64,000 bases of DNA from a virus. Shown here in pieces: positions 9,308-62,819 of this stretch (position 1 is its first letter; every line of letters starts with the position of its first letter). The DNA is taken from the UHGV virus genome UHGV-0229283. One strand, 5' to 3'. The position numbers and the translations under genes were made by a program. The notes beneath the pieces are model-generated. The model was not told where the DNA came from. It searched no databases and saw only the letters and a list, made by a program, of their open reading frames with translations.

Positions 9308-10003
9308 TTAATGGCAATCGCTCCAATTACGACCAGTCAGGTATGCCCCTGTGATATGTACAGGACTGCCCATGATACGAGCGGCCTTCTCTACACATCT
9401 TACGACCATTTCACCTACAGGGCAATACTGGATGTGAATTTTACCATCCTCTCCAAAAATACCCTCGTAGACTGTATTGCCTTCCGCATCCTTGACTTTA
9501 TCACCGTTGTCATCTTTGACGGCCTTTCTCCATTCATGTCCGTCAAATACCCGGCCTTTTGCTTCCCATTCTTTAACGAAAGCTGTTGCCTCTTCCAGGG
9601 TGTCAAACTCCCACTTCTTCAAGTATTTCTTAGGAACCTGGAGCTGGTATTCATCATGGTAGTAAATCAGGCGACGAACGTCATCATCATACCAGCCACG
9701 TTTGATTAGTTCCCAATGAAGAAGGATACCCACCAGATCGAATAGAGATGCACCACCGTTTTGCTGGAAAGCATTCAGAAGAGAGTGCTTAGAACGGGTC
9801 CAAATCTTACGACCATCGAGACCAGGGATATAACGTTTACCCGTTGCTTCCCAGAAGTTTTCAAGCCATTCCTTACGACCTTTCAAACCAAAGTTACTAT
9901 CCCAGAAAGCATCGATTACCGCCTGTGCCTTGTCAAGGGAAATGTGAAGCATTGCTGCAATCTTAGCTGCCTGAGCACCATACATGATCCTAATGTTCGA
10001 CAT
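9308..10003 (-). CDS. DNA polymerase (family A), C-terminal fragment/exon 2, carrying motif C
   Basis: IMYGAQAAKIAAMLHIS matches the Pol I motif B tail (YGMSAFGLARQL). YYHDEYQLQV matches motif C (VHDE). Confidence 0.75.
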   Translation of the reverse strand: MSNIRIMYGAQAAKIAAMLHISLDKAQAVIDAFWDSNFGLKGRKEWLENFWEATGKRYIPGLDGRKIWTRSKHSLLNAFQQNGGASLFDLVGILLHWELIKRGWYDDDVRRLIYYHDEYQLQVPKKYLKKWEFDTLEEATAFVKEWEAKGRVFDGHEWRKAVKDDNGDKVKDAEGNTVYEGIFGEDGKIHIQYCPVGEMVVRCVEKAARIMGSPVHITGAYLTGRNWSDCH

Positions 10004-10121
10004 GGGACGCTACCACCATGCCCGTTCTCTTATGAACTGCTGCATGTTTCCATGCAGAGCAGACTATATCTTCACCCACACTTGGGGTGTCCACCGCTTC
10101 GGGCCGCTTGGCCCTACTCCG

Positions 10122-10523
10122 TTACCGGATAGTCGTTGGGATTTTACCTCTTGCCAAATACCACTCTTCACCACTACAGTAAAGATTGTTGCAAACAGCA
10201 TGTTCTACATTAGATGCACGGCATGATAACTCTATATTTTCCCAGCAATTATTCAATGTGTTTGCATCTAGGTGGTTGACCTCTTCCTCTTCAAGAAGGT
10301 CTCTACCGATCTTTGCCGCACAAATCAACCTGTGCAACAAATAGTGTTTGCCATTTTTCAAACAGATACGCTGATAAAATTTCTTTCCCTTACCTTTGTG
10401 TAGATAGGGCTTCAACTTTCTTAGTTTTCCACGATTGCTGGAGTATATATTACCTTCGTGGTCACAAAAGTATCCGTTTGATATTGGTATTTTAGCCAAG
10501 GTACTTATCTGCTGATTGTCCAT
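10122..10523 (-). CDS. HNH homing endonuclease (HNH_3 type) inside the DNA polymerase gene
   Basis: NGYFCDHEGNIYSS...KLKP......Y..I.L...GK..LHRLI is the I-HmuI-like HNH_3 signature. The ORF lies between the two polymerase fragments. Confidence 0.7.
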   Translation of the reverse strand: MDNQQISTLAKIPISNGYFCDHEGNIYSSNRGKLRKLKPYLHKGKGKKFYQRICLKNGKHYLLHRLICAAKIGRDLLEEEEVNHLDANTLNNCWENIELSCRASNVEHAVCNNLYCSGEEWYLARGKIPTTIR

Positions 10524-10671
10524 TTCATCCTCCTAAAAGGAGAAATCATACATAAATTTTTCAAACTGTCAAGCCCATCCTCGCGGATCACTTTGTAGTA
10601 TTTATGTCTTTAGGATTTCCCAGCAATTCAATGGATGCACCTTATAAATTACTTCATAAGGGGGCTATCAA

Positions 10672-12711
10672 TTAACCGTAGGTTACCCCTTTACCACCGT
10701 TACGCGTTACCAGAGTACCAGAAGCTTTGGTGTATGCCTCGGCGTTTCGTGCGTGGGCATCTCCACTTTCCATGATACGGAGGTATTCACCGCCATCGAA
10801 CTCGTAAGCACCCCAAGCAGCAATCATACCTTCGAGGTTAGAACCATCGATACCGACTTGGTAATATTCATCGGTCACACCCCAGAGACCACGCATCTCT
10901 TTACCCAACAACACCTTAGGATCTGGCTTAGGCATGTTTGCACAAATGGTGTGCTTACAACGCCCGGTGTTAGTGATACCAGAGAAACGAGCTGGAAGTT
11001 TTCCATCAATCGCCAGGCGAGGATGATTCAACAGCCCTGTATCGTTTTTATCCTCGTCAATAGGGTCGAGAACAGAACGACGGTTACGTAATGACAGCCA
11101 CTTAACAATCTGTTTAGCCAAGTGAACATCGATAACTTCAAGGTTAGGACACAGCTTGCCAAAGTTATCCTTCAACTGTGGTGAAGTCGGCAGTTGACGA
11201 GCTTTGCGTCTGAACTTCTTGAAGATCTCCTCGTAAACACGATCAGAACCATGACGATGGTCGAACTTGTTTTCCGAGATATTGAACTTTGCGTCACTAT
11301 TATTTAAGTGCTCAAGAATCAGAGATTTATACTCGGACTCTCCAAGTTCTTCGATGTACTTACGCACCAGACCATCAACCTCCGCATCATCGCGGGTCTT
11401 TTTGAACTGGTCTTTCGTCACATCTTTAACACGCCAGAGCGTTGGTTTCCATCCCGCATCGCGGATCAGGTACTTCTTGATGTCGTCCTGGTTCGAGATC
11501 TTCATCGGAACCATCAGGTCTGGCATCTTTCCAGCACGAAGATCGGCAATTGCCTTTTCCATTAGGTCTGGTGGCAATGGGACAAGGGTATTCTCTTTCT
11601 TTATCTGGCTTCTAATGAAGTCTGGCATCGCTGCCGGGTCTTCAACACCATTCTGGATACAGTATCTTTCCCCTGCTGCACTTACATCACCGTTACCTTT
11701 AAACGCCGTCTTCGGTGGACCTTTGAATTCCAGCGCTTCACGATTAACTGGATATCCCAGCTTGTATTCTAACCAATTCCACCCGTGATGGGAAATTCTT
11801 CCTGCACCATCAAAAGGATTAGCAGGGAATTTTGGCTGTTGAGACTTCGTCATCTCTTTGAGCGGGAGTTGAGGTTCTACTTCTTCCTCAATCTCTTTCA
11901 TCATTACATCAATACGGTCTCTCAGCTTTTCAGCTTCATGCTTATTGAATGGAACACCCTGAATTTCTTGCTCAATCATCAGGTAATCAGTCAACATACG
12001 GCGGCGTAGCGCGTTCTTCCAGTTGATCTGCCGCATCCCTTCCGGCTTATCTTTGTACATGAACTGCTTGTCATCAGGCCAGCGAGCACCTGTAGACTCA
12101 TCGATCAGGGATTGCCATGTCAATTCGTTGATTAAAACGTCTTCCCAGACACGGTTAACGTATTCCCACAATGGTTGGTTACGCCAGTCATCGATCTGAA
12201 CTTTCTTGTTTGCTACGCGGTAGCCCCAGGCCAACAGGCCATGAGGACCTACACGGTCTCGCTTCCCGGTTACCGGGTTAAGAACAGAGTCAGGGCAACC
12301 GTTAGGTAATGGGCGGTCAGGATAAAGCACACGGCTCATAGAGAGGGTGTCGTAGAGATTTACCTGTGTATCCCCAATCGTCCCCATGCACTTCGGGTCT
12401 TTGAACATATCATATTCAATGCCCGATAACTTCTTCCACAGACGCAGGTCATAGCCAAAAAGGTTGTGAATCGCAATGCCGCGAGGCTCCGTTTGCAACC
12501 AAGTGTACAGCTCGTCATAAGAAAGAATCCTAAGGTTAGCCTCTGTCTTGCTACGAGCGTAAGCTACTGCGCTTTCATATTCCGGGTGGTTTGGGTCAAG
12601 GAAGAGGACCCAATTGTTAACACCAAATTCTTTCAGTAGTGTGCAGTGGTACTTTGTAACTTCATCAAGCAGCCCATCTGCTTCATTATCCCCTATAAAA
12701 AGACCTCTCAT
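10672..12711 (-). CDS. DNA polymerase (family A), N-terminal fragment/exon 1 (3'-5' exo plus palm motifs A and B)
   Basis: N-terminal LFIGDNEADGL is exo motif I-like. IDGSNLEGM corresponds to motif A (DYSQIELR). The C-terminus RNGGKGVTYG corresponds to the start of motif B (RRxAKxxNFG). Confidence 0.8.
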   Translation of the reverse strand: MRGLFIGDNEADGLLDEVTKYHCTLLKEFGVNNWVLFLDPNHPEYESAVAYARSKTEANLRILSYDELYTWLQTEPRGIAIHNLFGYDLRLWKKLSGIEYDMFKDPKCMGTIGDTQVNLYDTLSMSRVLYPDRPLPNGCPDSVLNPVTGKRDRVGPHGLLAWGYRVANKKVQIDDWRNQPLWEYVNRVWEDVLINELTWQSLIDESTGARWPDDKQFMYKDKPEGMRQINWKNALRRRMLTDYLMIEQEIQGVPFNKHEAEKLRDRIDVMMKEIEEEVEPQLPLKEMTKSQQPKFPANPFDGAGRISHHGWNWLEYKLGYPVNREALEFKGPPKTAFKGNGDVSAAGERYCIQNGVEDPAAMPDFIRSQIKKENTLVPLPPDLMEKAIADLRAGKMPDLMVPMKISNQDDIKKYLIRDAGWKPTLWRVKDVTKDQFKKTRDDAEVDGLVRKYIEELGESEYKSLILEHLNNSDAKFNISENKFDHRHGSDRVYEEIFKKFRRKARQLPTSPQLKDNFGKLCPNLEVIDVHLAKQIVKWLSLRNRRSVLDPIDEDKNDTGLLNHPRLAIDGKLPARFSGITNTGRCKHTICANMPKPDPKVLLGKEMRGLWGVTDEYYQVGIDGSNLEGMIAAWGAYEFDGGEYLRIMESGDAHARNAEAYTKASGTLVTRNGGKGVTYG

Positions 12712-23985: not shown

Positions 23986-25300
23986 TGCGGGGCTAAGATG
24001 CTATAATTTTACTTATGGGTCAACCCCTTATTAAGGATATTTTTTGCAGCATTAATGTCTGCATTCTCAGTATGACCGCAAGAAATACATAAAAATTTAG
24101 CTTGTGTTTTCCTGTTTTCTTTTGATACATACCCACATCCAGAGCACGTCTGAGAGGTATATGCTGGATTAACAATCATTAACTCACTTCCGTACCTGAT
24201 CGTTTTGTAAGCTAACTGCATACGTACCGAGTATAGACTCATATTTAGAATCTCTCGGTTAAGCCCTGTTTTAGCCTTCACATTTTTACCAGGCTGTTCA
24301 ATCGTTCCTTTTGACGATTTCGTCATATTGGAAACTTTCAAATCTTCCAGAACAATTTTGTAGGATTTTGTAGCCAACTTTTTAGTAAGTTTGTGGCAGG
24401 CGTCTTGGCGAATACTCCCTTGTTTGGACTTGCGTACAGTGATCATTTCGCCAAGCTTTTTGTATCTTGCGCTGCCTTTCTGGCATTTGGCTTGCTTACG
24501 TTGAAGAATACGAATACGTTCTTCAAGAGCCTTTAACGATTCTTTAGGATACTCCTCATGCCATGCTGTTTCACTATCTGAATCATAGCATGTTGCATAC
24601 TGTGCAACACCTAAGTCAACACCAACACACATTTCCCTTTTATTAGAGATCTGATAATAATCTTCGTCAGGTATTTCAAAGATGAAAGCAACATACCAGT
24701 CACCAGCAGTTTTGCTGAACGTGGTATTCATAAGTTTCCCATTCAGGATACGTGCAGGTATCTTATCTCCCAGTTTCATCTTTCCAAGTCTGTTGTGGAT
24801 GATGTAAGCCCCAACGTCATCAAGATTCTTTTCCTTTTTGAAGTCTGTATTGCTTAATTTAAAACCTTTCCTGCGATGCTTTGATTGAAACTTGGGTCTG
24901 CCTCCAAGCTTTTTGAAGCATCGCTGCCATGCCTCTTTGAGGTCATACTTTATAGCAAGCTGGCCAACACTACCGGGTATCCCATTTAACCATGTGTGGA
25001 TTCCTGAGCCTAACATTACTCCAGATTTTGTTGGCTTTTTAAAACCGAGAGGGTATTTACCTTGGTTAAAAAATTTATCGTATTCATTTATTTTTGCCAA
25101 TTTCCATTTTTCATCAGGAGATAGGGTTTCTTGGTCTATGAAACATAACCCTAATGCATAATTAAAAGCATAACGTCTGGCGTTGCTCCAATGAAGAAGA
25201 GTGCTGTTTTGGCGATTATTTGTACCAACTTTTGTTTTAAAACCTACCATCATGATAATCATCTACCTGCGCTGTTAAAGTTCATTCCGACAGTACCACA
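23975..25300 (-). mobile_element. IS200/IS605-family tnpB-only element (boundaries approximate)
   Basis: A TnpB gene with no tnpA. A stable hairpin (AGCCCCGCAATGGGGCT) sits at its 3' end where the omega RNA / right end would lie. Exact ends were not determined. Confidence 0.4.
24009..25262 (-). CDS. tnpB: TnpB (IS605 OrfB-family RNA-guided endonuclease)
   Basis: 417 aa. RuvC-I VGVDLGV, RuvC-II IVLEDLKVSNM, zinc finger CSGCG...CISCGH and RuvC-III NADINAAKNI are all present. Confidence 0.85.
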   Translation of the reverse strand: MIIMMVGFKTKVGTNNRQNSTLLHWSNARRYAFNYALGLCFIDQETLSPDEKWKLAKINEYDKFFNQGKYPLGFKKPTKSGVMLGSGIHTWLNGIPGSVGQLAIKYDLKEAWQRCFKKLGGRPKFQSKHRRKGFKLSNTDFKKEKNLDDVGAYIIHNRLGKMKLGDKIPARILNGKLMNTTFSKTAGDWYVAFIFEIPDEDYYQISNKREMCVGVDLGVAQYATCYDSDSETAWHEEYPKESLKALEERIRILQRKQAKCQKGSARYKKLGEMITVRKSKQGSIRQDACHKLTKKLATKSYKIVLEDLKVSNMTKSSKGTIEQPGKNVKAKTGLNREILNMSLYSVRMQLAYKTIRYGSELMIVNPAYTSQTCSGCGYVSKENRKTQAKFLCISCGHTENADINAAKNILNKGLTHK

Positions 25301-25347
25301 CTACGTGAGGAACGTGATAGAATGGAGAGTTCGTGCATACAGTCCAG

Positions 25348-25495
25348 AGGTTATCCCCACATATTTTGGGGGCACCTGATATCTGTGATACGCTAGGAGG
25401 ACTACATCGGTTTATCCCACATTGTGGGGAACACGGGCAGCGATTTGTAGCGATCCGGGTTGGCCTCGGTTTATCCCCACGCATGTGGGGAACAC
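25348..25495 (-). CRISPR. orphan mini CRISPR array: 3 type I-E-like repeats (29, 27, 28 nt) and 2 spacers of exactly 32 bp; no cas genes
   Basis: Read on the minus strand, R3 at 25467..25495 is GTGTTCCCCACATGCGTGGGGATAAACCG. R2 at 25408..25434 is GTGTTCCCCACAATGTGGGATAAACCG. R1 at 25348..25375 is degenerate. The spacers are 25435..25466 and 25376..25407. Repeat flanks GTGTTCCCC and GGGGATAAACCG and the 6-4-6 hairpin geometry match the enterobacterial I-E repeat consensus (from memory: GTGTTCCCCGCGCCAGCGGGGATAAACCG). Confidence 0.7.
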
Positions 25496-25786
25496 TCTAA
25501 CCGTAAACATATGGCAACCTTAGTGTTTTAAGCCCACTTAAAATCTACCGAGTTGTGTTCCCAAATTTGTAGAGATAGGAGCAAAGCTCCTGAAGGACTT
25601 ATGCAACTAAGTTGCAGCCCCCTTCTTCCTTCATAGACTCGCTAATGCTTATCTCCAGAAGCATAACTTCGGCGTTAACCACACCTAGAGGATTGGCTCC
25701 CAACAAGAGACACTATACAGTGTCTCTTAATTGGAGTCAACAATTATTTTCTAAGAATATCCCCTGAAACTGTTTTCACATTACCT

Positions 25787-25978
25787 TCAATAAACTTCTG
25801 TTCTGGTCTCACCACTTTTAATGATCCTCGCTTTTTGGGCATGATAGACAAACTGTTTGTTCTCTTTAACAAACTTTTTGCCCTGTTCTTCGTCTTCGAA
25901 AATCAAGGTATCACACTCGGTGAAAGAATGTCCAGGCCTTTTTTCAACAGACCGCGTTGTGGCTACAATGAGGGACAT
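25787..25978 (-). CDS. hypothetical protein (63 aa) between the RNA ligase and the array leader
   Basis: Its start is coupled to the RNA ligase stop. Confidence 0.35.
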   Translation of the reverse strand: MSLIVATTRSVEKRPGHSFTECDTLIFEDEEQGKKFVKENKQFVYHAQKARIIKSGETRTEVY

Positions 25979-27069
25979 TAGCCCTCCTCACTCAGACGAG
26001 TCATGTACCATGCACGAGCTTTGTTGCTGATAAACTTGCCAACATCTTTCATGGTCATGGAGCTGGCTTCCAGAACATCACCCTCTTCCTTGTTGATGTC
26101 TCGGTTAATCCACCCAATGAATTCACCGATCTTAGTCTTGTCAAGACCGACTTCGCTGACACCCTGCTCAAGACGTGCTTCCGTCACAGCGTACTCAACG
26201 AACTCACGCATACTTGCGAGGCGTTCTGGGTCGATTGCCGCCAGGGTCTTAACTTTGGATACAGAGTGTTTATCACCTTTGACTTTAAACCACAGGCCAG
26301 AGATTTTAGAAAGCTCAGGATCTTTTGGAGACCAGACAATGCCTTCACCGATACCTTCTACGCCAAAGAACTTACCTGCCGGGCATTTGTTTTCCACTTC
26401 ACGAGTCAGTTCTGCCAGGTCATTCTGGACAAGTTCCGGCTCATTGAATGGGATATTAGCCATCCAGTAACCGAAGTCAAGGATACTGTAGATACGAGCA
26501 TCCGGCAATCCAATTCCAAACTGGAACGTTGGTGGTAGCCAGTTGAGGGTATCCGTTGCCTCATCCCGTCCCACAGCCACACGGAAGATAGCAAAGAACG
26601 GCTCTACTTCAGTGATGGCAACACCTTTCTGAATGCCACGCCCAGCCCATTCACCAGCAATTTCAACCGGGAACTGGAACTCGACGTCATTGACTTCACA
26701 CAGGTATTTAACCTGTGAAAGCAACTCTGCGGTGTCTTTTCGAGACATGAAGGCCGCGAAGCCATTGTTATCGTCGCCTACAGTCACGACACGCTCTTTG
26801 GACTGGAAGACAACTTCATCCTCAGAGTGGAATACCACACTGCCATTAGTGCCGTGAAGCTTAACCGTACCGATGTACGGGATCAGGTACGCTTCCGGTG
26901 GCAACACCTTTCGCTTGATATTACCCTCTTCATCAATACCGTCGAACGTCAGTTTATCATGCATGGTGCGGATAACCTGACGGAACTGTGCGGTGCTTGG
27001 GTATTTAATTGGTTTTGTCAATTTTATTCTCCTCAAATAATTTGCTAATGTGTCCGCCAGAAAGTTCAA
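25978..27069 (-). CDS. Rnl2-like RNA ligase (ATP-dependent nucleotidyltransferase)
   Basis: GTVKLHGTNGSV matches the KxDG/KIHGTN motif I of T4 Rnl2. Length is 363 aa. Confidence 0.7.
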   Translation of the reverse strand: MNFLADTLANYLRRIKLTKPIKYPSTAQFRQVIRTMHDKLTFDGIDEEGNIKRKVLPPEAYLIPYIGTVKLHGTNGSVVFHSEDEVVFQSKERVVTVGDDNNGFAAFMSRKDTAELLSQVKYLCEVNDVEFQFPVEIAGEWAGRGIQKGVAITEVEPFFAIFRVAVGRDEATDTLNWLPPTFQFGIGLPDARIYSILDFGYWMANIPFNEPELVQNDLAELTREVENKCPAGKFFGVEGIGEGIVWSPKDPELSKISGLWFKVKGDKHSVSKVKTLAAIDPERLASMREFVEYAVTEARLEQGVSEVGLDKTKIGEFIGWINRDINKEEGDVLEASSMTMKDVGKFISNKARAWYMTRLSEEG

Positions 27070-27262
27070 GAACTACATATCTTTGTTGGTCATCAAAATA
27101 CTGCTTCCCACCCCATGTTGCGTGGACAAGATTCCACGCATTCTTGGCAGCGCCAGAGCTAATCCATCCAATCTTGGCTTTGTGGTTCCAGAGGCATCTG
27201 TCAACAGTGTCATAGATGACAAAAACCAATTTACTCATCAGGACCCTCCAGCTTCCAGCCAC
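27005..27262 (-). CDS. hypothetical protein (85 aa or shorter)
   Basis: Overlaps the ligase start. The true start is probably the internal Met (MSKLVFV). Confidence 0.35.
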   Translation of the reverse strand: MAGSWRVLMSKLVFVIYDTVDRCLWNHKAKIGWISSGAAKNAWNLVHATWGGKQYFDDQQRYVVLELSGGHISKLFEENKIDKTN

Positions 27263-27554
27263 GACTATTCAGCCATTCGTCAATCTGAATACCCGTGCCG
27301 TCACCACTTGGTTTCTCTACCCCAAGTAGTAGTATGGCAAAGCTCTGACCACGAGGGGCGTTATAGGTTAACACCGTATTACCCACATAAAGGTCGATCT
27401 TTTTGGTATGTGCTACCATACCGTCTCTCAATTTAACCACGATAATCCAGTCCCCCCTGTGGATAATCCACATTTTGTCATTTCCCGAATGGCAGCGATC
27501 TGTTCTGATGTCAGAGGGCCGTCGTCTGGAGGGTAGTAACCAGGGATTTCCCAT
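27231..27554 (-). CDS. hypothetical protein (107 aa or shorter)
   Basis: Overlaps the macro gene 3' end. Uncertain start. Confidence 0.3.
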   Translation of the reverse strand: MGNPWLLPSRRRPSDIRTDRCHSGNDKMWIIHRGDWIIVVKLRDGMVAHTKKIDLYVGNTVLTYNAPRGQSFAILLLGVEKPSGDGTGIQIDEWLNSRGWKLEGPDE

Positions 27555-28039
27555 TCTTTCAAGACATAAACTGTCACATCACAATCAAAGAAGATTGATT
27601 TGATCATTGCCTCGATGACGTTCCAGTCACCGCCTGCAAGGCCCGCACCAATTTTAGGGAAGCCAATTTTGTAGTCAGCCATAGAACCGTCTGTAAAGCT
27701 CTGTAAGAGCTTTTTCATTTCAACCATCGAATCATACAAGGCATTGTAGTCGAGGTCCCTGAGGCCCTGTTTACGGAGAGTATAGCCATATTGTGAGTAC
27801 AGATTAAACCCTGCGACTGTACCGTCCTTCAGGAAGGCCATTGTATAGGTTCCAAGTTTGGCTTTATCACCCTTCTCGGTCTTGAGATCCGCAGCGTACA
27901 TTTTGGGGAACGCTTCTTTGACCAACGGGGCGATACCCCTGCCCATAGCGCAATGGCAATTACAACCGTGAGCGAACACGTTAACTTCACCGTTCTTAAC
28001 GGCCTCGATCAGGTCTCCAACTTTATATTTCAAGCTCAT
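27428..28039 (-). CDS. macro domain protein (Poa1p-like ADP-ribose-1''-phosphate phosphatase family)
   Basis: VFAHGCNCHCAMGRGIAPL resembles the Poa1p-like macro signature (hCxs.d..mGaGIA). Length is 203 aa. Confidence 0.55.
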   Translation of the reverse strand: MSLKYKVGDLIEAVKNGEVNVFAHGCNCHCAMGRGIAPLVKEAFPKMYAADLKTEKGDKAKLGTYTMAFLKDGTVAGFNLYSQYGYTLRKQGLRDLDYNALYDSMVEMKKLLQSFTDGSMADYKIGFPKIGAGLAGGDWNVIEAMIKSIFFDCDVTVYVLKEWEIPGYYPPDDGPLTSEQIAAIREMTKCGLSTGGTGLSWLN

Positions 28040-28183
28040 TTACAACTCCTCTCTTTAAACTCTTTCATGGATTCAATAGCATCCGAACGATTTTTCGCGC
28101 AGACAACAAACACCCGATGACGTCGATAGGTGTATCCTGCCATAACACAGTCGGCGGTGTCAAGCCACCAACACTCGTTTAGT

Positions 28184-28390
28184 TCAGAAGCCGGGAATTT
28201 GAATTTTGCCATCTTTTCTCTCCACGTAATAAGGTAATCGCTTGATCAAGTCTTGAGGAGCACCATTTTCTGTCCAAGTGAGGCCTTGGTCACCAGAAAC
28301 ATAGCCTTTACCGTTAACAAACTTGCGCCAGATATTACGAAACTGGTTTTTGTAGATCATTCGATCACACTCCAGCCTTCGTCCTGCCAT
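28184..28390 (-). CDS. hypothetical protein (68 aa)
   Basis: Co-oriented ORF. Confidence 0.3.
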   Translation of the reverse strand: MAGRRLECDRMIYKNQFRNIWRKFVNGKGYVSGDQGLTWTENGAPQDLIKRLPYYVERKDGKIQIPGF

Positions 28391-28611
28391 GCTTCACCAC
28401 GATACCAGTCTGCCATAGGGCAACCGTCTTCTGCGTAGATACGCCCATCAACCATTTCGAACCATTCATCAGAAGTGAAATATTGGTTACGGATACGTTT
28501 ACCTTCACGCATGGCCTGCTTTGCTTGTTCCCAGGTTAAACAATGCATATCAATCATCCTTTCCGAATTTAACAACGTCTTCGTAGGACAACCCCGAACG
28601 AAGAAGAGCAT
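28357..28611 (-). CDS. hypothetical protein (84 aa)
   Basis: Co-oriented ORF. Confidence 0.35.
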   Translation of the reverse strand: MLFFVRGCPTKTLLNSERMIDMHCLTWEQAKQAMREGKRIRNQYFTSDEWFEMVDGRIYAEDGCPMADWYRGEAWQDEGWSVIE

Positions 28612-28912
28612 CTTTAACTTTTTGTTTTTTCTCTTGCAAAACCTGCAAGTTTGATTTTACAACACCTTTGAAAGAACCACCTTCATAACAGGGGGGTTCG
28701 ATCTCCGCAATCAAGTGATTAAGATCTGATTCTGGAGTTGCTTCAATGACCAAGCTATTCTCAACGTCAATCCAGTATTGGTAGTGAGCGTGTTTGCCAA
28801 TACTTTCCAGGAATTTGATTGCATGTGCCGGACTGTTTGCCTTTACGTAACCAAGTAGTTTAGTTGTACGGCCTTCGCAATCACCTTCGGTAGTAACTTT
28901 GTAAATTTGCAT
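28550..28912 (-). CDS. hypothetical protein (120 aa)
   Basis: Co-oriented ORF. Confidence 0.4.
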   Translation of the reverse strand: MQIYKVTTEGDCEGRTTKLLGYVKANSPAHAIKFLESIGKHAHYQYWIDVENSLVIEATPESDLNHLIAEIEPPCYEGGSFKGVVKSNLQVLQEKKQKVKDALLRSGLSYEDVVKFGKDD

Positions 28913-28973
28913 GAGTCTATCCTCGTTTTGTTTGATACATGAAGAATAACAGCCCCAAGAGGGGCTGTCAATA

Positions 28974-30171
28974 TTATTTTCCTTCGATAAGCTTAATATC
29001 TTCAGCGTAGTTGACCTGGAAGTCTGCCATAATTTTCATTATGATGGGCTTTGCCTTCAACAAACGTGCAGGAAGCTTGTCACGGTTGCTTGCAGTGGTC
29101 AACAGCGCCTTACCGAATGCATTTTCCTTGATGAACGACAAGAAAATAGAGCTTACGAAGTCTCGGTTCTGGTCCATAAAGTGATCATAAAGATACTGTA
29201 GGAAGTTTCCAGAGAATTCAATAATCTGGTCATCCGTGTAGTTGGTATCTGCAATAGCCTTACGCAACCAAATAGCGCCTTCTGAACCCAAAATCCACAG
29301 GCTATCGGATGGAAGGTCTCCAGGATCTTGGGCAGTACCGTTCATAACGTCTTCGATCGGGACCATATTACGAATCTTAGTGTGGTATGCCCACAGTTCA
29401 GCCATTAAAGGTGTGCCAATGAAGCCCTGAAGAGCAACCTTAGCCAGGTTGGCAGGCAGCAAATTAGCATCGTAATCGTACAATACATCACTGGCGTAAG
29501 TTAAAGTACGCGGTGTGGCGAAAGAAGGACACCCGATATCCAGCATTTCTTCATAGTTTTCAATAGCACTGTTCTTACGAGACAGAAAACCAATGATTGA
29601 CGAATGAATACCGTTCTGCATGGCATAGTCTTCGATGAAGACCGATGCGCTATAGGTAAGCTCTACCAGCATCATACGGTTAGCCAAAGGAGCTTCCAGT
29701 GCAGTCACGGCAGTACCATCCCCAGCACGGTTACCCGCAGCAACCAGTACAGCCCCTTCAGGGAACTGGTAGGTCCCGATTCGACGGTCCAGCATGATTT
29801 GGAATGCCAGTTTCTGAAGGTAAGGCTCTGCGTGGAGAAGCTCATCAAGAAACACAATACCTTTCCAGTTAGGATCACGGGGCCAGAAATCCGGCAAGGC
29901 GTACACTGTGCGAGTAACACCATTGTCATCGGTGTATGGAATCTGCACCCCGGTGAGGTCAGTGTTATCTTTATCAGCCAAGCGGAAGTCTACCAGGTTA
30001 TCACCAGGCCCGAAAAGAGAGTCTGCTATTTGCTTCACGGCCTGACTTTTACCAATACCTGCCCCACCGAAGATCATCAGTGAACGTTTGTGACGCTGGC
30101 AAAATTGTACGAGTGGTGGAAGATCTCGCAAAGTGATCCAGTTACCAGAAAAGATATTACGACTTGACATT
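28974..30171 (-). CDS. MoxR/CobS-like AAA+ ATPase (AAA_5)
   Basis: Start moved to MSSRNIF, which is preceded by AGGAGA. Walker A GGAGIGKS. Walker B VFLDELLHA. The arginine-finger region is AAGNRAGDG. Confidence 0.7.
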
Positions 30172-30233
30172 ATTTGTCTCCTGTAAATGAAATTCGGGAG
30201 AAGGATACATTTGATCCTCCCCCATTGCAATGA

Positions 30234-30656
30234 TTATTTATCCACCCATACGCGATTTTCATCACACCAATCATAAAAATCTTTCATGATGTCGTTGAAT
30301 TCCCGCAAGGGTGTATAATGGCGAATAGGATCAGCATCATACCCCTCATTTTCACATTCTGCAATAGAGGCTAGCCAATCCGGGTATGTTGGAACATCCC
30401 GGAAATAGCCAATTATATCACACAGCTCATAATCGCAGCCATTATCCCAGTTGTCGTAGTTTGACTCGCGAGGGAATTTCCGTTCAAGACGGCGGGCTAT
30501 CTCTTTAGCAAGCTCATGCACCGTTTTATCTGTCCAGTCTTCCCGACCACATTCACCACTCCGCTTATCCCAGATGTCGCGGAGGTCCAGAGTTGTTTTC
30601 CAGTTAGGCATTGTTCCTCTCCTTATATCTTCCTCGCCAAGGGCCGAAACGCCCAC
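30234..30656 (-). CDS. hypothetical acidic protein (140 aa)
   Basis: Co-oriented ORF rich in D/E/W/Y. Confidence 0.45.
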   Translation of the reverse strand: MGVSALGEEDIRRGTMPNWKTTLDLRDIWDKRSGECGREDWTDKTVHELAKEIARRLERKFPRESNYDNWDNGCDYELCDIIGYFRDVPTYPDWLASIAECENEGYDADPIRHYTPLREFNDIMKDFYDWCDENRVWVDK

Positions 30657-30751
30657 ATTTTAGACATTCCCAGCTGCGTTGCCCGTAAATGATGATCTTG
30701 CCGATTTCTTTATTTCGACAATTTGGGCAAGAGTATACTATCTTACCACCT

Positions 30752-31279
30752 TTAGACAGCATTTTTCACCTTCCTCAACTCGAATTCATCGCCATAGCCT
30801 ATCATATGGCCTTTGGCCGTGATCACCTTTTCTCCAAACACACTGCCAGTGCATTTACCAATGAAAACTTCTGGCATATCTTCTTCTGAAAGAAGAATAT
30901 CCACAGTAAATTTACCATGATAGTGCCTTGCGTTGTAATGCGGCCCTTCATCATCTGTTTTATACCAGTATTTACCATTCCAGCGGTATTTGTTATGCCT
31001 GTACCATACATATGACCCCCAGGTGTCTTGTGCTATATGGTCCACTTTGGTAGTAATAAGTCGGCCTGTATTACGAAGTAGCTCGTCATATTGCTTTTCG
31101 TAAACTTCCACACGATTTTTCATACTGTTGTAATAGTTCTGGTAACGATCAGCTCTGTTGACCATAACCCTGAGAAGGTTCTCAATAGGCGTACCTTTCT
31201 CAAGATGTTCTTCATAAAGTTGTTGACTTGTTTTGCTTTCCATATCAAATCTCCTTAAGAAATTCATGACAAATACCAT
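30752..31279 (-). CDS. hypothetical protein (175 aa)
   Basis: Co-oriented ORF. Confidence 0.45.
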   Translation of the reverse strand: MVFVMNFLRRFDMESKTSQQLYEEHLEKGTPIENLLRVMVNRADRYQNYYNSMKNRVEVYEKQYDELLRNTGRLITTKVDHIAQDTWGSYVWYRHNKYRWNGKYWYKTDDEGPHYNARHYHGKFTVDILLSEEDMPEVFIGKCTGSVFGEKVITAKGHMIGYGDEFELRKVKNAV

Positions 31280-31449
31280 TTAAAACCACAGTTCGGGCAA
31301 CAAGGTTCCTTAATCCGAAGCTGATCGGGGGCCTTTACAGGAGCATCTTTCAGGTTATAAGTCGAAAAACATCTCGCACATACTACAACCTTGTCAGGAA
31401 TTTCCATTTCGAACCAAGGAAGGCCATTTAATTTTTTCGTAATGATCAT
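31264..31449 (-). CDS. small zinc-ribbon protein (61 aa)
   Basis: CARC...CCPNCG four-Cys motif. Confidence 0.4.
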   Translation of the reverse strand: MIITKKLNGLPWFEMEIPDKVVVCARCFSTYNLKDAPVKAPDQLRIKEPCCPNCGFKWYLS

Positions 31450-31955
31450 AATGTAGCCAACATGTTGATCGCTTCGTGGTGTTCTTTCATCTTTGTCAGA
31501 CGAAGATACATGTCATGATACTTACGGACACGTAACAAATCCTTATCTGTCAGGCCTTTCAGGCGACGAACATCAGAGTTATGGCGCAGGTCTGCAAGCT
31601 TCACACGTACCGCATCATAGTTTTGGGCCAGGCGGTTAAAATACTCTTCCGGTGTCTGATTAGGGGTTTTCGTCAGAAGAACCACAGCATCCTTCACACG
31701 GTTCGAGAAGCCTAGCAGAACCAGATCCGCAGCGGTAACATCGGTGTCTTCAACCACATCATGAAGCGCGGCGATAGCCATAAGCTGAAAATCATCGGTC
31801 TTCAGGTAGTGCATTACCTTCAGCGGATGAAGGATGTACGGGTTACCACCCTTATCTTTCTGATTCAGGTGGCCTTCTGCTGCAATTTTAATTGCTAAAG
31901 CAAGTTCTTGGGCCGGACTTAAAGCTTGAATACAACTCTTGTCTGTTGATACCAT
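31446..31955 (-). CDS. HD-domain hydrolase, SpoT/Mesh1-like small (p)ppGpp-type hydrolase
   Basis: NPYILHPLKV...AALHDVVEDT matches the RelA/SpoT HD hydrolase signature. Length is 169 aa. Confidence 0.6.
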   Translation of the reverse strand: MVSTDKSCIQALSPAQELALAIKIAAEGHLNQKDKGGNPYILHPLKVMHYLKTDDFQLMAIAALHDVVEDTDVTAADLVLLGFSNRVKDAVVLLTKTPNQTPEEYFNRLAQNYDAVRVKLADLRHNSDVRRLKGLTDKDLLRVRKYHDMYLRLTKMKEHHEAINMLATL

Positions 31956-32914
31956 TTGACAGCTTCCTCTAGGTTAAAGGGTTTTATGTTCAGTCTATCG
32001 AAAGATTTTACGTTGTCAAGCCAAAATTCATCTTCATACCCTGCGATCGACATCATCATCAGTTCTTCTTCTGTTGGGGAGTCCCCCTCCATCATACTCT
32101 GTAACTTGGGGTCATATTCCAAGTGGAACATTGTTTCTTTCGGGGAACAAACGAACATTGCCTTACGTGCCTTATTAGCGATCTTTCTGTTCATGATGTT
32201 GATAACCGAATGATTCAGTTGGCTACAAACACGATCGAACGCTGAAGGCTCAAGATAGTCAGAGTAAAGAACCAAATCACCACTGATAATCCTTACATTT
32301 TTAAGGGTGAATCTCTCCCCATTATGGGCCATCCAAGATTGGATAGGGGCATTTTTTTGATAGCCGGTGTATTCGACAACCAAACGGAGATCAAGATCAT
32401 CTCCGTGTGACATCCCTACCAAAAGCTGCTTTACACACTCAAGAAAATACTTAGTATGGTAGTTAAAATTCCAGAACCCACTAAGAAATGCTTCGCCAAA
32501 ACCATGACCGTGAATATTGATAGAGACTGTTTCTGCGAAGCGATGTGTCCAAGGGTCACCACCCGTAATATGTGTTTGGTGGTCTATTTCCATACGTGAA
32601 ACATTTGTCTTCCGATTCATATCAAAACTATAATCCATGACATCCCCTGGAAGCCATTGCCAATAAAAAGGGCTACCATGCGTAGGAAGTTTATCAAGAC
32701 ATGACAAAACTATTTCCAATATCGGGTTAGAGTCCTGTACCCCTTGGAGATAATCTCTAAAGCGGGTGATGGGATTGTCAACATATTTGTCCATCTCAAG
32801 AGTTGACAGAAATCTCTCTTGAGCAGCCGCCTTCCCTTGTAACAACTTATCTATGAAATCCCGCTCCTCATCCCAAGTATAGTTTGGTTTTACATTAATA
32901 TCTACTTTGCTCAT
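31919..32914 (-). CDS. hypothetical protein (about 331 aa; start at MSKVDINV with GAGGG RBS)
   Basis: First gene of the minus-strand block. An internal ATG is preceded by GAGGGTAAGTG. Confidence 0.5.
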   Translation of the reverse strand: MSKVDINVKPNYTWDEERDFIDKLLQGKAAAQERFLSTLEMDKYVDNPITRFRDYLQGVQDSNPILEIVLSCLDKLPTHGSPFYWQWLPGDVMDYSFDMNRKTNVSRMEIDHQTHITGGDPWTHRFAETVSINIHGHGFGEAFLSGFWNFNYHTKYFLECVKQLLVGMSHGDDLDLRLVVEYTGYQKNAPIQSWMAHNGERFTLKNVRIISGDLVLYSDYLEPSAFDRVCSQLNHSVINIMNRKIANKARKAMFVCSPKETMFHLEYDPKLQSMMEGDSPTEEELMMMSIAGYEDEFWLDNVKSFDRLNIKPFNLEEAVKWYQQTRVVFKL

Positions 32915-32980
32915 AATCTCACTTACCCTCTTATACAAATAATGAACAAAGATACACCGCCACTTTTTAGAAATCAAGGG

Positions 32981-33009
32981 TTGACAACTCTTTTCCGAAT
33001 GGTGATAAT
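32981..33009 (+). promoter_or_regulatory. sigma70-like promoter for the plus-strand block; -10 lies inside perfect palindrome GGTGATAATCACC
   Basis: TTGACA, then 17 bp, then GATAAT. The palindrome 33001..33013 could be an operator. Confidence 0.5.
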
Positions 33010-34906: not shown

Positions 34907-36334
34907 GTGTATAAAGACGAGTCGGAGATGATCTCCAAGCTACAAGATTCAGCACTGAAGAAAGTTCAGTCTGCCCGCATCGCTTTACTTACTAATCGAC
35001 CATTCTACGGGACGCTATTAAGCGGTATGCCGCTGATAGTTGACTGTGCATGGCTTCCAACCGCAGCGACTGATCATCGCAACCTATACTTTAACCCAGA
35101 GTTCATTATGGGTATGCCTGTTGATCGCAAGAAAAAAGTCTTTGCTCGTATTGACAAGCATCCGATGATGACACAACAGCAAAAAGATGAATATAAAGAA
35201 TATGTGGATGTCTTCTATCGTCAAAAAACCATGAAGGAAATTGTATTTATTCTAATGCATGAGGTCCGCCATGTCACCAACGACCACATGTCTCGTGGGA
35301 AAACATTTGACCGTAGACGTTTCAATATCGCAGCCGATCACTATATCAACACTGATCTGGTCAAGGAGTTGGGCCAGAAAGCTGAGAGTTTGAAATGGTT
35401 CACTCATAGACAAGTGTTTGATAAGTCAAAAGAATTTGGATTCCTTGCTTACTGCTATTGTGACTATCAGTACGAGGGGAAAACGGCTGAAGAAATTTAT
35501 GCTCTTTTGCCTGGTGAAGCCGGGGATAGTAAAGGTAAGCCGCTGGGGGCGCACATCGGGGATTATGATAAAAACCTAGATATTCTGGGGTATACAGACC
35601 CACACCCACAGAAGTCTCCTGATCAGGAAGATGAGGATATGTCTTGGTCTGAGGACATGATTGACGCCGCTATGAAAGCCGCTGGCGGTGAAGGACCGAA
35701 AGAAGCCAGAGAATTAATCGCACAAAAAGGTAAACCGAAGATTAATTACCTGCAAATAATTAAGCAACGGATGATTTCTCGTGTTAAATCTGATCGTACT
35801 TATCGGGTTTTAGGTCGTCGGTCCGGCGGGATGACAAAAGTTCTTCGTGATCACGGTGCTTTAACTAAGAAACAGTTCATGGTTATGCCGGGTAGAAAAC
35901 GAACAGAAACTGTAGATATCGTAATCGGTTTTGACGTTTCAGGTTCTATCTCTCGTCAAACAATGACACGTATCTTTAATGAGATCATCGCTTTGAGCAC
36001 CCTGTACCAATGTTTCCGTATCACATTGTTCTGTTGGTCAACCCAAGTTGGCAACGTCAACGTGTACACACAGGACAACATAAAGGAAATTCTGGATTAC
36101 AGAGTTACATCGACTGGTGGAACGACTGCGGCATGTGCTTTTGAGTACATCGATGAGTTTATTCCTAAGGCAAAAGAGGTTATAATCTTCACAGATGGTT
36201 ACATCGAGGACCTGAGACATCGTGGCTCAAGCTGGGGACGTAAGTACAACACTCTCTGGGTTATCTGCGGTGGTCGTAAGGGTTGGTTAGCTCCATTCGG
36301 GAAGGCGGTAGATTTGGATGAGCACTTTAAATAA
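34907..36334 (+). CDS. VWA-domain protein with N-terminal zincin-like metallopeptidase domain (DUF2201/CoxE/CobT-like), likely partner of the AAA+ ATPase
   Basis: HExxH (ILMHEVRHV) in the N-terminal half. A C-terminal VWA-like MIDAS region (DIVIGFDVSGS). This architecture commonly pairs with MoxR ATPases. Confidence 0.55.
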   Translation: MYKDESEMISKLQDSALKKVQSARIALLTNRPFYGTLLSGMPLIVDCAWLPTAATDHRNLYFNPEFIMGMPVDRKKKVFARIDKHPMMTQQQKDEYKEYVDVFYRQKTMKEIVFILMHEVRHVTNDHMSRGKTFDRRRFNIAADHYINTDLVKELGQKAESLKWFTHRQVFDKSKEFGFLAYCYCDYQYEGKTAEEIYALLPGEAGDSKGKPLGAHIGDYDKNLDILGYTDPHPQKSPDQEDEDMSWSEDMIDAAMKAAGGEGPKEARELIAQKGKPKINYLQIIKQRMISRVKSDRTYRVLGRRSGGMTKVLRDHGALTKKQFMVMPGRKRTETVDIVIGFDVSGSISRQTMTRIFNEIIALSTLYQCFRITLFCWSTQVGNVNVYTQDNIKEILDYRVTSTGGTTAACAFEYIDEFIPKAKEVIIFTDGYIEDLRHRGSSWGRKYNTLWVICGGRKGWLAPFGKAVDLDEHFK

Positions 36335-62444: not shown

Positions 62445-62819
62445 TTAGGAGGTTACCAGTTTCATCGGGCGTTTCATATCCCAAAAGTTCAGGAGGCCCT
62501 GACACAGTTGCTTTGTTGGCAGACCATCTTTATTCATCGGGGCTTCGTCACGCAGACGGCGGATCTCTTCAAGCAGAAGGATTACCTCATCTGGATAATA
62601 ACCAGTAGGCTCTTCCGCCTTGATCATACAGATACCAGGTTTCCACTTAGACAAAGAGTAACGACTCTCGTCTTCTTTCCGGTTAGGGTATGCATCAACC
62701 AACACCTTAGCCAGCTTGCCACGGATCTGCTTTACAATGCCGGGTTTTAGTTCATTGTACCCGAAATAAATATAAACAGAGTCGCCAACCTTGAGAGTAT
62801 CGCCACGAACATCATTCAT
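62445..62819 (-). CDS. hypothetical protein (124 aa)
   Basis: Co-oriented ORF. Confidence 0.45.
   Translation of the reverse strand: MNDVRGDTLKVGDSVYIYFGYNELKPGIVKQIRGKLAKVLVDAYPNRKEDESRYSLSKWKPGICMIKAEEPTGYYPDEVILLLEEIRRLRDEAPMNKDGLPTKQLCQGLLNFWDMKRPMKLVTS

Follow-up and report, generated by a model that had tools for sequence, protein, structure and literature searches.

Gene sets for RNA repair have been described in large phages by Burroughs, Iyer and Aravind (PMC7824862), and their parts list, which includes the RNA ligases Rnl1 and Rnl2, a polynucleotide kinase, calcineurin-like and cRec phosphoesterases, as well as RlaP, a CCA-adding enzyme and PTH2, is the closest likeness for some of the genes considered here; the ligases, the kinase and the phosphoesterases also recall the Pnkp-Rnl1 pathway of phage T4. 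A second precedent is the small alarmone hydrolase (SAH) of the Salmonella phage PVP-SE1, which neutralised all five toxSAS toxins tested, namely CapRel, PhRel2, FaRel2, PhRel and FaRel (Jimmy et al., PMC7229694). The present work concerns the full 64,000-nucleotide stretch of UHGV virus genome UHGV-0229283 (the window), in which a sequence-only reading had assigned an Rnl2-like ligase, a Poa1p-like macro domain protein, an HD hydrolase, a Pol-beta nucleotidyltransferase and a possible PTH2 to one multi-component tRNA-repair system. These genes serve three or more distinct counter-defence functions, each described before, and the region is probably a co-directional early/middle array carrying several independent counter-defence enzymes. 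The theme of tRNA protection is common to the ligase, RlaP and the PTH2-like gene, and extends in a different manner to the HD protein; the idea of one system does not hold, since the genes are spread over 37 kb of the window, the kinase and phosphoesterase lie beside Rnl1 outside it, and the HD protein belongs to toxSAS neutralisation (PMC7229694). All five genes are present in the window, as follows:

25978..27021, minus strand: Rnl2-family ATP-dependent RNA ligase, 347 residues
27428..28039, minus strand: stand-alone macro domain protein of the BT1257/TARG1/Poa1p/DarG clade, 203 residues
31446..31955, minus strand: small alarmone hydrolase with an HD domain, Aph1/PbcSpo type, 169 residues
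61365..62438, minus strand: RlaP-family Pol-beta nucleotidyltransferase, 357 residues
62821..63312, minus strand: predicted PTH2-fold hydrolase, probably a peptidyl- or acyl-tRNA hydrolase, 163 residues

A megablast search with positions 25500-33000 matched 63 phage records, the top match being Klebsiella phage vB_KpnM_BIS47 (BIS47; genus Mydovirus, Vequintavirinae), which shares the gene order and is 96% identical in nucleotide sequence across 94% of the query. To judge from this similarity, the window comes from a Klebsiella phage of Mydovirus-like type (Vequintavirinae). From about position 33000 down to position 1 transcription is on the minus strand throughout, as judged from the GC skew and the layout of open reading frames (ORFs), and no tRNA genes were found within the window. 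In the BIS47 record the genes of the searched region carry the labels RNA ligase, phosphatase, ATPase, metal-dependent phosphohydrolase and thymidylate kinase. The genes are thus already known, being annotated in near-identical genomes, described comparatively or tested in an orthologue; the practical value of the analysis is one of annotation, and it raises no new question. Therapeutic-candidate Klebsiella phages of this group carry a broad gene set against tRNA-targeting, alarmone-based and NAD+-depleting defences, which may bear on their host range.

The RNA ligase and the tRNA-end genes

The ligase had been recognized from its KLHGTN motif, and its assignment to the Rnl2-like enzymes is confirmed by a PF09414 score of 33.3 bits (cut-off 27), a match to phrog_548 (E=4e-76) and alignment with T4-type Rnl2. 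Its longest ORF spans 25978-27069; the true start is the TTG codon at 27021, which has a GAGGAG Shine-Dalgarno sequence 7 nucleotides ahead of it and gives a protein of 347 residues, the length also found in the nearest cluster representative. The alignment comprised 24 sequences, the window protein, T4-type Rnl2 from a Tequatrovirus record and 22 diverse homologues, and revealed the complete motif set I-V: the KxHGTN context (K70, H72, G73, T74 and N75), motif III (G139/E140), motif IIIa (F162), motif IV (E242/G243) and motif V (K262/K264) are all invariant. So are T296, R299, D324 and E328 of the C-terminal domain, and the last 100 residues align at the sequence level to T4-type Rnl2 without large gaps. 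The conserved Arg, Asp and Glu of this domain align to R266, D292 and E296 of T4 Rnl2, which are essential in that enzyme. On these sequence grounds the window ligase, which has both the motif set and the C-terminal domain of Rnl2, is a true member of that family. By the same kind of evidence it is a separate subfamily and not an orthologue of T4 Rnl2: the T4 Rnl2 equivalog TIGR02307 of NCBIfam gave 20.6 bits against a cut-off of 197. Compared with T4 Rnl2 (gp24.1; PDB 1S68/2HVQ), it shares the two-domain layout and motifs I, III, IIIa, IV and V, whereas the identity is only 19%, the N terminus is about 20 residues longer, and the D120 of T4 motif IIIa is not retained. Again unlike T4 Rnl2, it stands for a phage subfamily of very large size, for which more than 5,000 matches were obtained. 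Directly downstream of the ligase block, positions 24009-25790 hold a TnpB/IS605 OrfB gene (417 residues; PF07282 and PF01385) and about 530 nucleotides of non-coding sequence. Similarity to related phages begins only at 25791; the relatives have an HNH endonuclease and small ORFs at the TnpB site, which indicates that one mobile element was replaced by another.

The neighbourhood of the ligase was examined in 80 viral loci encoding its relatives, 69 of them outside the Vequintavirinae, by clustering all ORFs without prior labels; the DNA-ligase and Rnl1 clusters were confirmed by Pfam, and the other neighbours were identified by BLAST to window or BIS47 proteins that had themselves been assigned by Pfam. 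Among the 69 loci, to which all of the following counts refer, the most frequent neighbours of Rnl2 are an ATP-dependent DNA ligase (23 loci) and an Rnl1-type RNA ligase (18), followed by a calcineurin-like (Metallophos) phosphoesterase (11), an AAA_33 kinase (10), an SAH-like HD protein and a PTH2-like protein (9 each) and a cREC domain (5). The gene orders seen include cREC-Metallophos-Rnl2-Rnl1-AAA_33, Rnl2-Metallophos-Rnl1-AAA_33, Rnl1-Rnl2 and CCA enzyme-RlaP-Rnl2, and proteins in which the ligase is fused to Metallophos also exist (P0033). Such varied arrangements of Rnl2 with repair genes, together with the fusions, indicate that the ligase family works in the repair of RNA breaks, as has already been concluded for large phages (PMC7824862). 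That the Rnl2 ligase, RlaP and the PTH2-like protein all serve in tRNA or RNA repair is a reasonable view, and one that agrees with published work (PMC7824862, PMC12776372).

In BIS47, the Metallophos, Rnl1 (PF09511), cREC (PF20274) and AAA_33 genes form one cluster about 30 kb past the right end of the window. The search for a kinase/phosphatase partner suggested by the sequence-only reading was therefore successful in one respect only: the partner exists in BIS47, but beside Rnl1 and outside the window, not beside this ligase. Rnl2-type ligases join 3'-OH and 5'-phosphate ends and leave no 2'-phosphate. In the mechanism that we propose, the window ligase would seal 3'-OH/5'-phosphate RNA breaks, acting functionally with the Rnl1, AAA_33, Metallophos and cREC set. 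Two differences separate this arrangement from the described ones. The parts are dispersed here over more than 60 kb of a 145-kb genome, which is not that of a jumbo phage; and the kinase and the phosphoesterase are separate small proteins, with no fused Pnkp, and stand beside Rnl1 rather than Rnl2.

Near the right-hand edge of the window a third gene is enclosed by RlaP and the PTH2-like gene:

62445..62819, minus strand: DUF7205 protein, 124 residues (PF23835, E=4e-47), between the PTH2-like gene and RlaP

The Pol-beta nucleotidyltransferase of the sequence-only reading proved to be RlaP, with 56.1 bits for PF10127 (cut-off 23), a phrog_388 match of E=4e-79 and the N-terminal Pol-beta SGS...DVD motif, SGSLAYGTNLPTSDVDIRG; a search of PDB sequences with this protein gave nothing significant. 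RlaP enzymes add one or two nucleoside monophosphates to damaged RNA 3' ends, and have been proposed to restore the nucleotide lost to nucleases such as RloC ahead of ligation (PMC12776372). Restoring one or two lost nucleotides would likewise be the task of RlaP in this phage. In the window it lies 35 kb from Rnl2 and is not adjacent to it; in one unrelated phage (L037) the two genes adjoin, and in three further loci (L076, L077 and L079) they lie within 8 kb of each other.

For the PTH2-like protein the fold that had been suspected is firmly supported by modelling, while the Pfam score for PTH2 (PF01981; 16.8 bits, E=0.008) lies below the cut-off of 23. It matches phrog_3668 (E=5e-57), and its AlphaFold model, with a predicted local distance difference test score (pLDDT) of 91.4, has only PTH2 enzymes among its top 13 Foldseek matches in the PDB (target-normalised template modelling (TM) score 0.64-0.73, probability 1.00), the next match having E=0.5. 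The fold is the same as that of MJ0051, Bit1/PTRH2 and S. solfataricus Pth2, from which the window protein differs, apart from its Pfam score, by an insertion of about 30 residues (roughly 108-140). Its family has conserved Q-x-x-H-A and K-x-(I/V)-V-L stretches, which we take to be similar to PTH2 motifs. Several other lineages, too, have PTH2-like genes close to those for RlaP, an SAH-like HD protein or a DNA ligase, and PTH2 is listed among the RNA-repair and ribosome-rescue genes of jumbo phages (PMC7824862). In BIS47 a CCA-adding enzyme gene lies 1.2 kb past the PTH2-like gene, and all Vequintavirinae loci have the four genes in the order CCA enzyme, PTH2-like, DUF7205, RlaP; together with the CCA-adding enzyme beyond the window end, the three genes probably constitute a small cluster for the maintenance of tRNA ends. 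The label 'hydrolase' of current records would be better given as PTH2-fold tRNA hydrolase. In this phage we infer the substrates of the PTH2-like protein, as we do those of the ligase and the macro domain protein.

The macro domain protein and NAD+/ADP-ribose genes

That the product of 27428..28039 is a macro domain protein was evident from both sequence and structure comparisons. The score for PF01661, 20.9 bits, is just under the cut-off of 22, while phrog_335 matches with E=4e-63, and sequence searches of the PDB recovered BT1257 (2e-7), Poa1p (3e-5), TARG1 (5e-5) and DarG. The AlphaFold model (pLDDT 82.8) has TARG1, BT1257, Poa1p and DarG as its first Foldseek matches, the Poa1p structures taking ranks 6-15 with E about 1e-8. 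With BT1257 (PDB 2AFC/2FG1), TARG1/OARD1, Poa1p and DarG the protein shares the macro sub-fold (target-normalised TM score 0.70-0.82) as well as the GxGIA and P-x-IG-x-GL-x-G loops; the catalytic Gly-rich loops are both present, HGCNCxxxMGxGIA and PKIGAGLAGGDW being invariant in 20 homologues. It differs from these relatives in a C-terminal tail of 40 residues, the last approximately 40 residues of the model being a poorly modelled extension. It also differs at some of the positions probed in the Poa1p structures, according to the HMMER alignment and the fold, with residue roles taken from PDB entry titles: H23 of Poa1p corresponds to the invariant H24, but S30 corresponds to A31 and F152 to A135. 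The catalytic pair of TARG1 is K84 and D125; in the HMMER alignment D125 falls opposite the nearly invariant Ala135 and K84 opposite R89, which is not conserved. A hand alignment had put K84 opposite Q83 and was dropped in favour of the HMMER alignment.

The gene neighbourhood of the macro family is that of NAD+ metabolism. In 80 viral loci centred on macro homologues and clustered in the same label-free way, the 65 that lie outside the Vequintavirinae have, near the macro gene, NamPRT in 37 cases, phosphoribosyl pyrophosphate synthetase (Prs) in 29, NMNAT-Nudix in 25, Sir2 in 24 and NADAR in 21; directly flanking it are NADAR in 14 loci and NamPRT in 12, in several distinct gene orders. Rnl2 occurs within 8 kb in only two of these 65 loci, and, in the ligase-centred set of 69, a macro gene lies within 10 kb of Rnl2 in four. 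With NAD+ genes as its neighbours and few ligases among them, the macro gene is best placed with the NAD+/ADP-ribose genes of phages, which sets it apart from Poa1p and DarG, whose contexts are tRNA splicing and the DarT toxin, respectively. Genes of the same kind are present in this phage group. A Pfam scan of the left 24 kb of the window found a NadR-like NMN adenylyltransferase (NMNAT; CTP_transf_like and AAA_28) and a DUF4326 protein, which by BIS47 synteny should be located in the first few kb, and the left end also has a region matching the PnuC gene of BIS47; NamPRT, Prs, Sir2 and NADAR are encoded elsewhere in BIS47. Published work ties DUF4326 to macro, NADAR and SLOG domains, and both it and the NadR-like NMNAT are in keeping with the link of the macro gene to NAD+/ADP-ribose that is suggested here. 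The macro protein would thus be a member of a phage NAD+/ADP-ribose conflict set comprising NamPRT, Prs, NMNAT, PnuC, Sir2 and NADAR, and most likely hydrolyses an ADP-ribose derivative or adduct rather than a by-product of RNA ligation. The label 'phosphatase' would be better replaced by macro domain linked to NAD+/ADP-ribose metabolism.

The macro protein could instead be a DarG-like antidote that removes DarT-added ADP-ribose from phage DNA, thereby complementing the NADAR protein. DarG macrodomains are among its top fold matches, the NCBIfam DarG equivalog matches its N-terminal 60 residues (E=2e-8), and the gene most often found directly next to this macro family in other phages is NADAR, which BIS47 also encodes. 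Yet the DarG equivalog gives only 33.6 bits, far under its cut-off of 250, and the HMMER alignment does not establish an equivalent of the catalytic Lys. The bacterial homologues also speak against it: 68 of the 80 genome loci fetched had the macro ORF, no gene cluster recurred in more than eight of them, and the family in bacteria is a widespread stand-alone gene with neither a conserved neighbourhood nor a toxin neighbour, so that its bacterial context gives no hint of function. We consider a DarG-like role unlikely.

The assignment of the macro gene to NAD+/ADP-ribose metabolism, and the separation of the listed genes into independent functions, have several points to contend with. The sequence-only reading had put the ligase 300 bp upstream of the macro gene; as transcription runs, however, the macro gene comes first, and the apparent gap of about 400 bp that separates the two is occupied by a pair of small conserved ORFs, whose stops and starts overlap:

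27231..27419, minus strand: small ORF of 62 residues, read from the sequence, BIS47_234, between the macro gene and the ligase
27005..27238, minus strand: small ORF of 77 residues, read from the sequence, BIS47_235, conserved only within the Vequintavirinae

The first of these has an ATGA stop/start overlap onto the second, which in turn overlaps the ligase start by 17 nucleotides, so that macro, orf62, orf77 and Rnl2 are tightly packed, in an order kept across Vequintavirinae genera. A joint function of macro and ligase in the Vequintavirinae is accordingly conceivable. In addition, a HAD phosphatase of the 'Swiss-army-knife' RNA-repair type (PF18143) is found no more than three genes from the macro gene in 17 loci of other phages, and in L027 the NAD-salvage genes adjoin the repair cluster; the NAD and repair gene sets are therefore not cleanly separated. 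Metagenomic loci, moreover, may often be related, in which case the locus counts overstate the number of independent events, and the Rnl1, kinase and phosphoesterase cluster is known only from the relative BIS47 and not from the window's own phage. All of these observations weigh against the reading that we favour.

One form that such cooperation could take is that the macro protein removes ADP-ribose from RNA whose ends or bases have been modified by host ADP-ribosyltransferases (ARTs), restoring ligatable ends for Rnl2. TARG1 and DarG, its closest structural relatives, act on ADP-ribosylated macromolecules, nucleic acids included, and both the tight macro-orf-orf-Rnl2 order of the Vequintavirinae and the presence of the HAD_SAK RNA-repair phosphatase near the macro gene of other phages are consistent with the idea. 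The adjacency is limited, however, to one phage subfamily, with Ala135 in place of the TARG1 D125 and no conservation at the position aligned to K84, and we regard this cooperation as quite improbable. Slightly less credible again is the fuller version, in which the Vequintavirinae macro-orf-orf-Rnl2 array is an operon for de-ADP-ribosylation of host-ART-capped or -modified RNA by the macro protein, followed by resealing by the ligase, a reading that draws on the lineage-specific macro-ligase adjacency only. If it were true, RNA repair coupled to de-ADP-ribosylation would be a pathway not previously described.

The sequence-only reading itself had ligase, macro protein, HD hydrolase, nucleotidyltransferase and PTH2-like protein working as one tRNA-repair system, with the macro protein acting like Poa1p on ADP-ribose-1''-phosphate. 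Here too the single tight array of macro gene and ligase is in favour, as are the H-x-CNC...GxGIA loop that the protein has in common with Poa1p, including the equivalent of H23, and the proposal of a macro role in this very pathway for jumbo phages that encode KptA (PMC7824862). The Poa1p pathway, however, needs a 2'-phosphotransferase and a ligation route that leaves a 2'-phosphate. A Pfam scan of about 83 window ORFs and 38 non-structural BIS47 ORFs found no Tpt1/KptA (PF01885), 2H phosphoesterase, RtcB or HAD-PNK partner, host enzymes lying outside its scope. By established biochemistry the joining of 3'-OH and 5'-phosphate ends by Rnl2 leaves no 2'-phosphate, and for that reason the by-product account fails. 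The Ala residues at the equivalents of Poa1p S30 and F152, the scarcity of macro-Rnl2 pairs outside the Vequintavirinae and the NAD-salvage genes that are the usual macro partners all argue in the same direction, and a single system of this kind is highly unlikely. A place for the macro gene in NAD+/ADP-ribose metabolism remains the preferred reading.

The HD protein as a small alarmone hydrolase

The HD protein had been described as a Mesh1/SpoT-like hydrolase that could degrade alarmones, and on both counts this was right. Its match to HD_4 is weak (21.4 bits) and TIGR00691 matches its N-terminal part (4e-15), while in the PDB it matches the (p)ppApp hydrolase Aph1 of Bacteroides caccae (7SMG, E=1e-27) ahead of the hydrolase domains of Rel/RelA (1e-10) and Mesh1 (1e-7). 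HMMER aligned it to Aph1 over its whole length, with the HD motif kept and with D24 and R119 of Aph1 retained as D34 and R131; these two residues are reported to confer (p)ppApp specificity on Aph1 (PMC10083569). A single homologue was found by tblastn in PVP-SE1, itself a member of the Vequintavirinae, with 88.8% identity over 100% of the protein. Its product, PbcSpo, is the SAH whose neutralisation of toxSAS toxins was cited above; as this closely similar SAH has been tested, the function of the window gene is essentially known. Four of the five toxins concerned pyrophosphorylate the CCA end of tRNA, and some SAHs reverse the modification and thereby restore aminoacylation (bioRxiv 10.1101/2021.04.30.441581). 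The HD protein would accordingly take the toxSAS-made 3'-pyrophosphate off (pp)pApp and probably also off tRNA CCA ends, and its role can fairly be called tRNA repair, directed against other damage than the sequence-only reading had in mind. Unlike aph1, which adjoins a (p)ppApp synthetase toxin gene, the window gene has no such neighbour, and a RelA/SpoT synthetase domain was not found anywhere in the window. The label 'metal-dependent phosphohydrolase' would be better given as toxSAS-neutralising small alarmone hydrolase of the PbcSpo/Aph1 type.

That the HD protein might instead be an RNA-end phosphatase, healing 3'-phosphate or 2',3'-cyclic phosphate ends for the ligase, is brought to mind by SAH-like HD genes that lie a few genes from Rnl2 in a second phage lineage (L044, L068, L074-L079) and by the proposal that phosphatases of the HD type act in the RNA repair of some jumbo phages (PMC7824862), but is very doubtful indeed given the 89% identity to a proven toxSAS neutraliser (PMC7229694) and the close Aph1 match with its (p)ppApp-specificity residues, the two roles overlapping in any event if the substrate is a tRNA 3'-pyrophosphate.

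Overlapping the start of the HD gene is a 352-residue protein (31919-32977, minus strand) that owes its 'thymidylate kinase' label to PHROG 10920. Pfam, NCBIfam and the PDB sequences gave no significant match to it, nor can a Walker A motif be seen, for which reason the label looks unreliable.

Other features of the window

Between the macro and HD genes lies a gene for an AAA ATPase (28974-30230, minus strand; phrog_1297) with the Walker A sequence GGAGIGKS, and in the same region, on the plus strand, an ORF of 475 residues (34907-36334), to which the DUF2201_N metallopeptidase and VWA domains that Pfam detected thereabouts in the window most likely belong. Homologues of both occur together in an unrelated phage locus (L070), and the two may be a MoxR-VWA-type pair. 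Directly 3' of the ATPase gene, at 28947-28970 (minus strand), a strong 10-bp GC-rich hairpin overlaps a promoter-like site and may be where the transcript of the HD/ATPase block is separated from that of the macro/ligase block. It was the only notable site in a promoter and terminator scan, in which counts were close to chance, and is too weak a sign for defining transcription units.

Positions 10040-10683 hold, on the minus strand, a group I intron of full length (Rfam RF00028, 66 bits, E=1.6e-14), which lies between ORFs of 679 residues (10672-12711) and 231 residues (9308-10003). A match to family-A DNA polymerase was obtained with one of the ORFs at the window's left end, and the polymerase gene of BIS47 is a single ORF of 2,643 nucleotides; by synteny with BIS47 the intron locus appears to be the polymerase gene, split here by the intron.

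The non-structural genes in positions 50001-100000 of BIS47 (L003) include those for a Band_7/SPFH protein, an NfeD-like protein and a ClpP-like protease, a combination that has been linked to bacterial RNA-repair operons.

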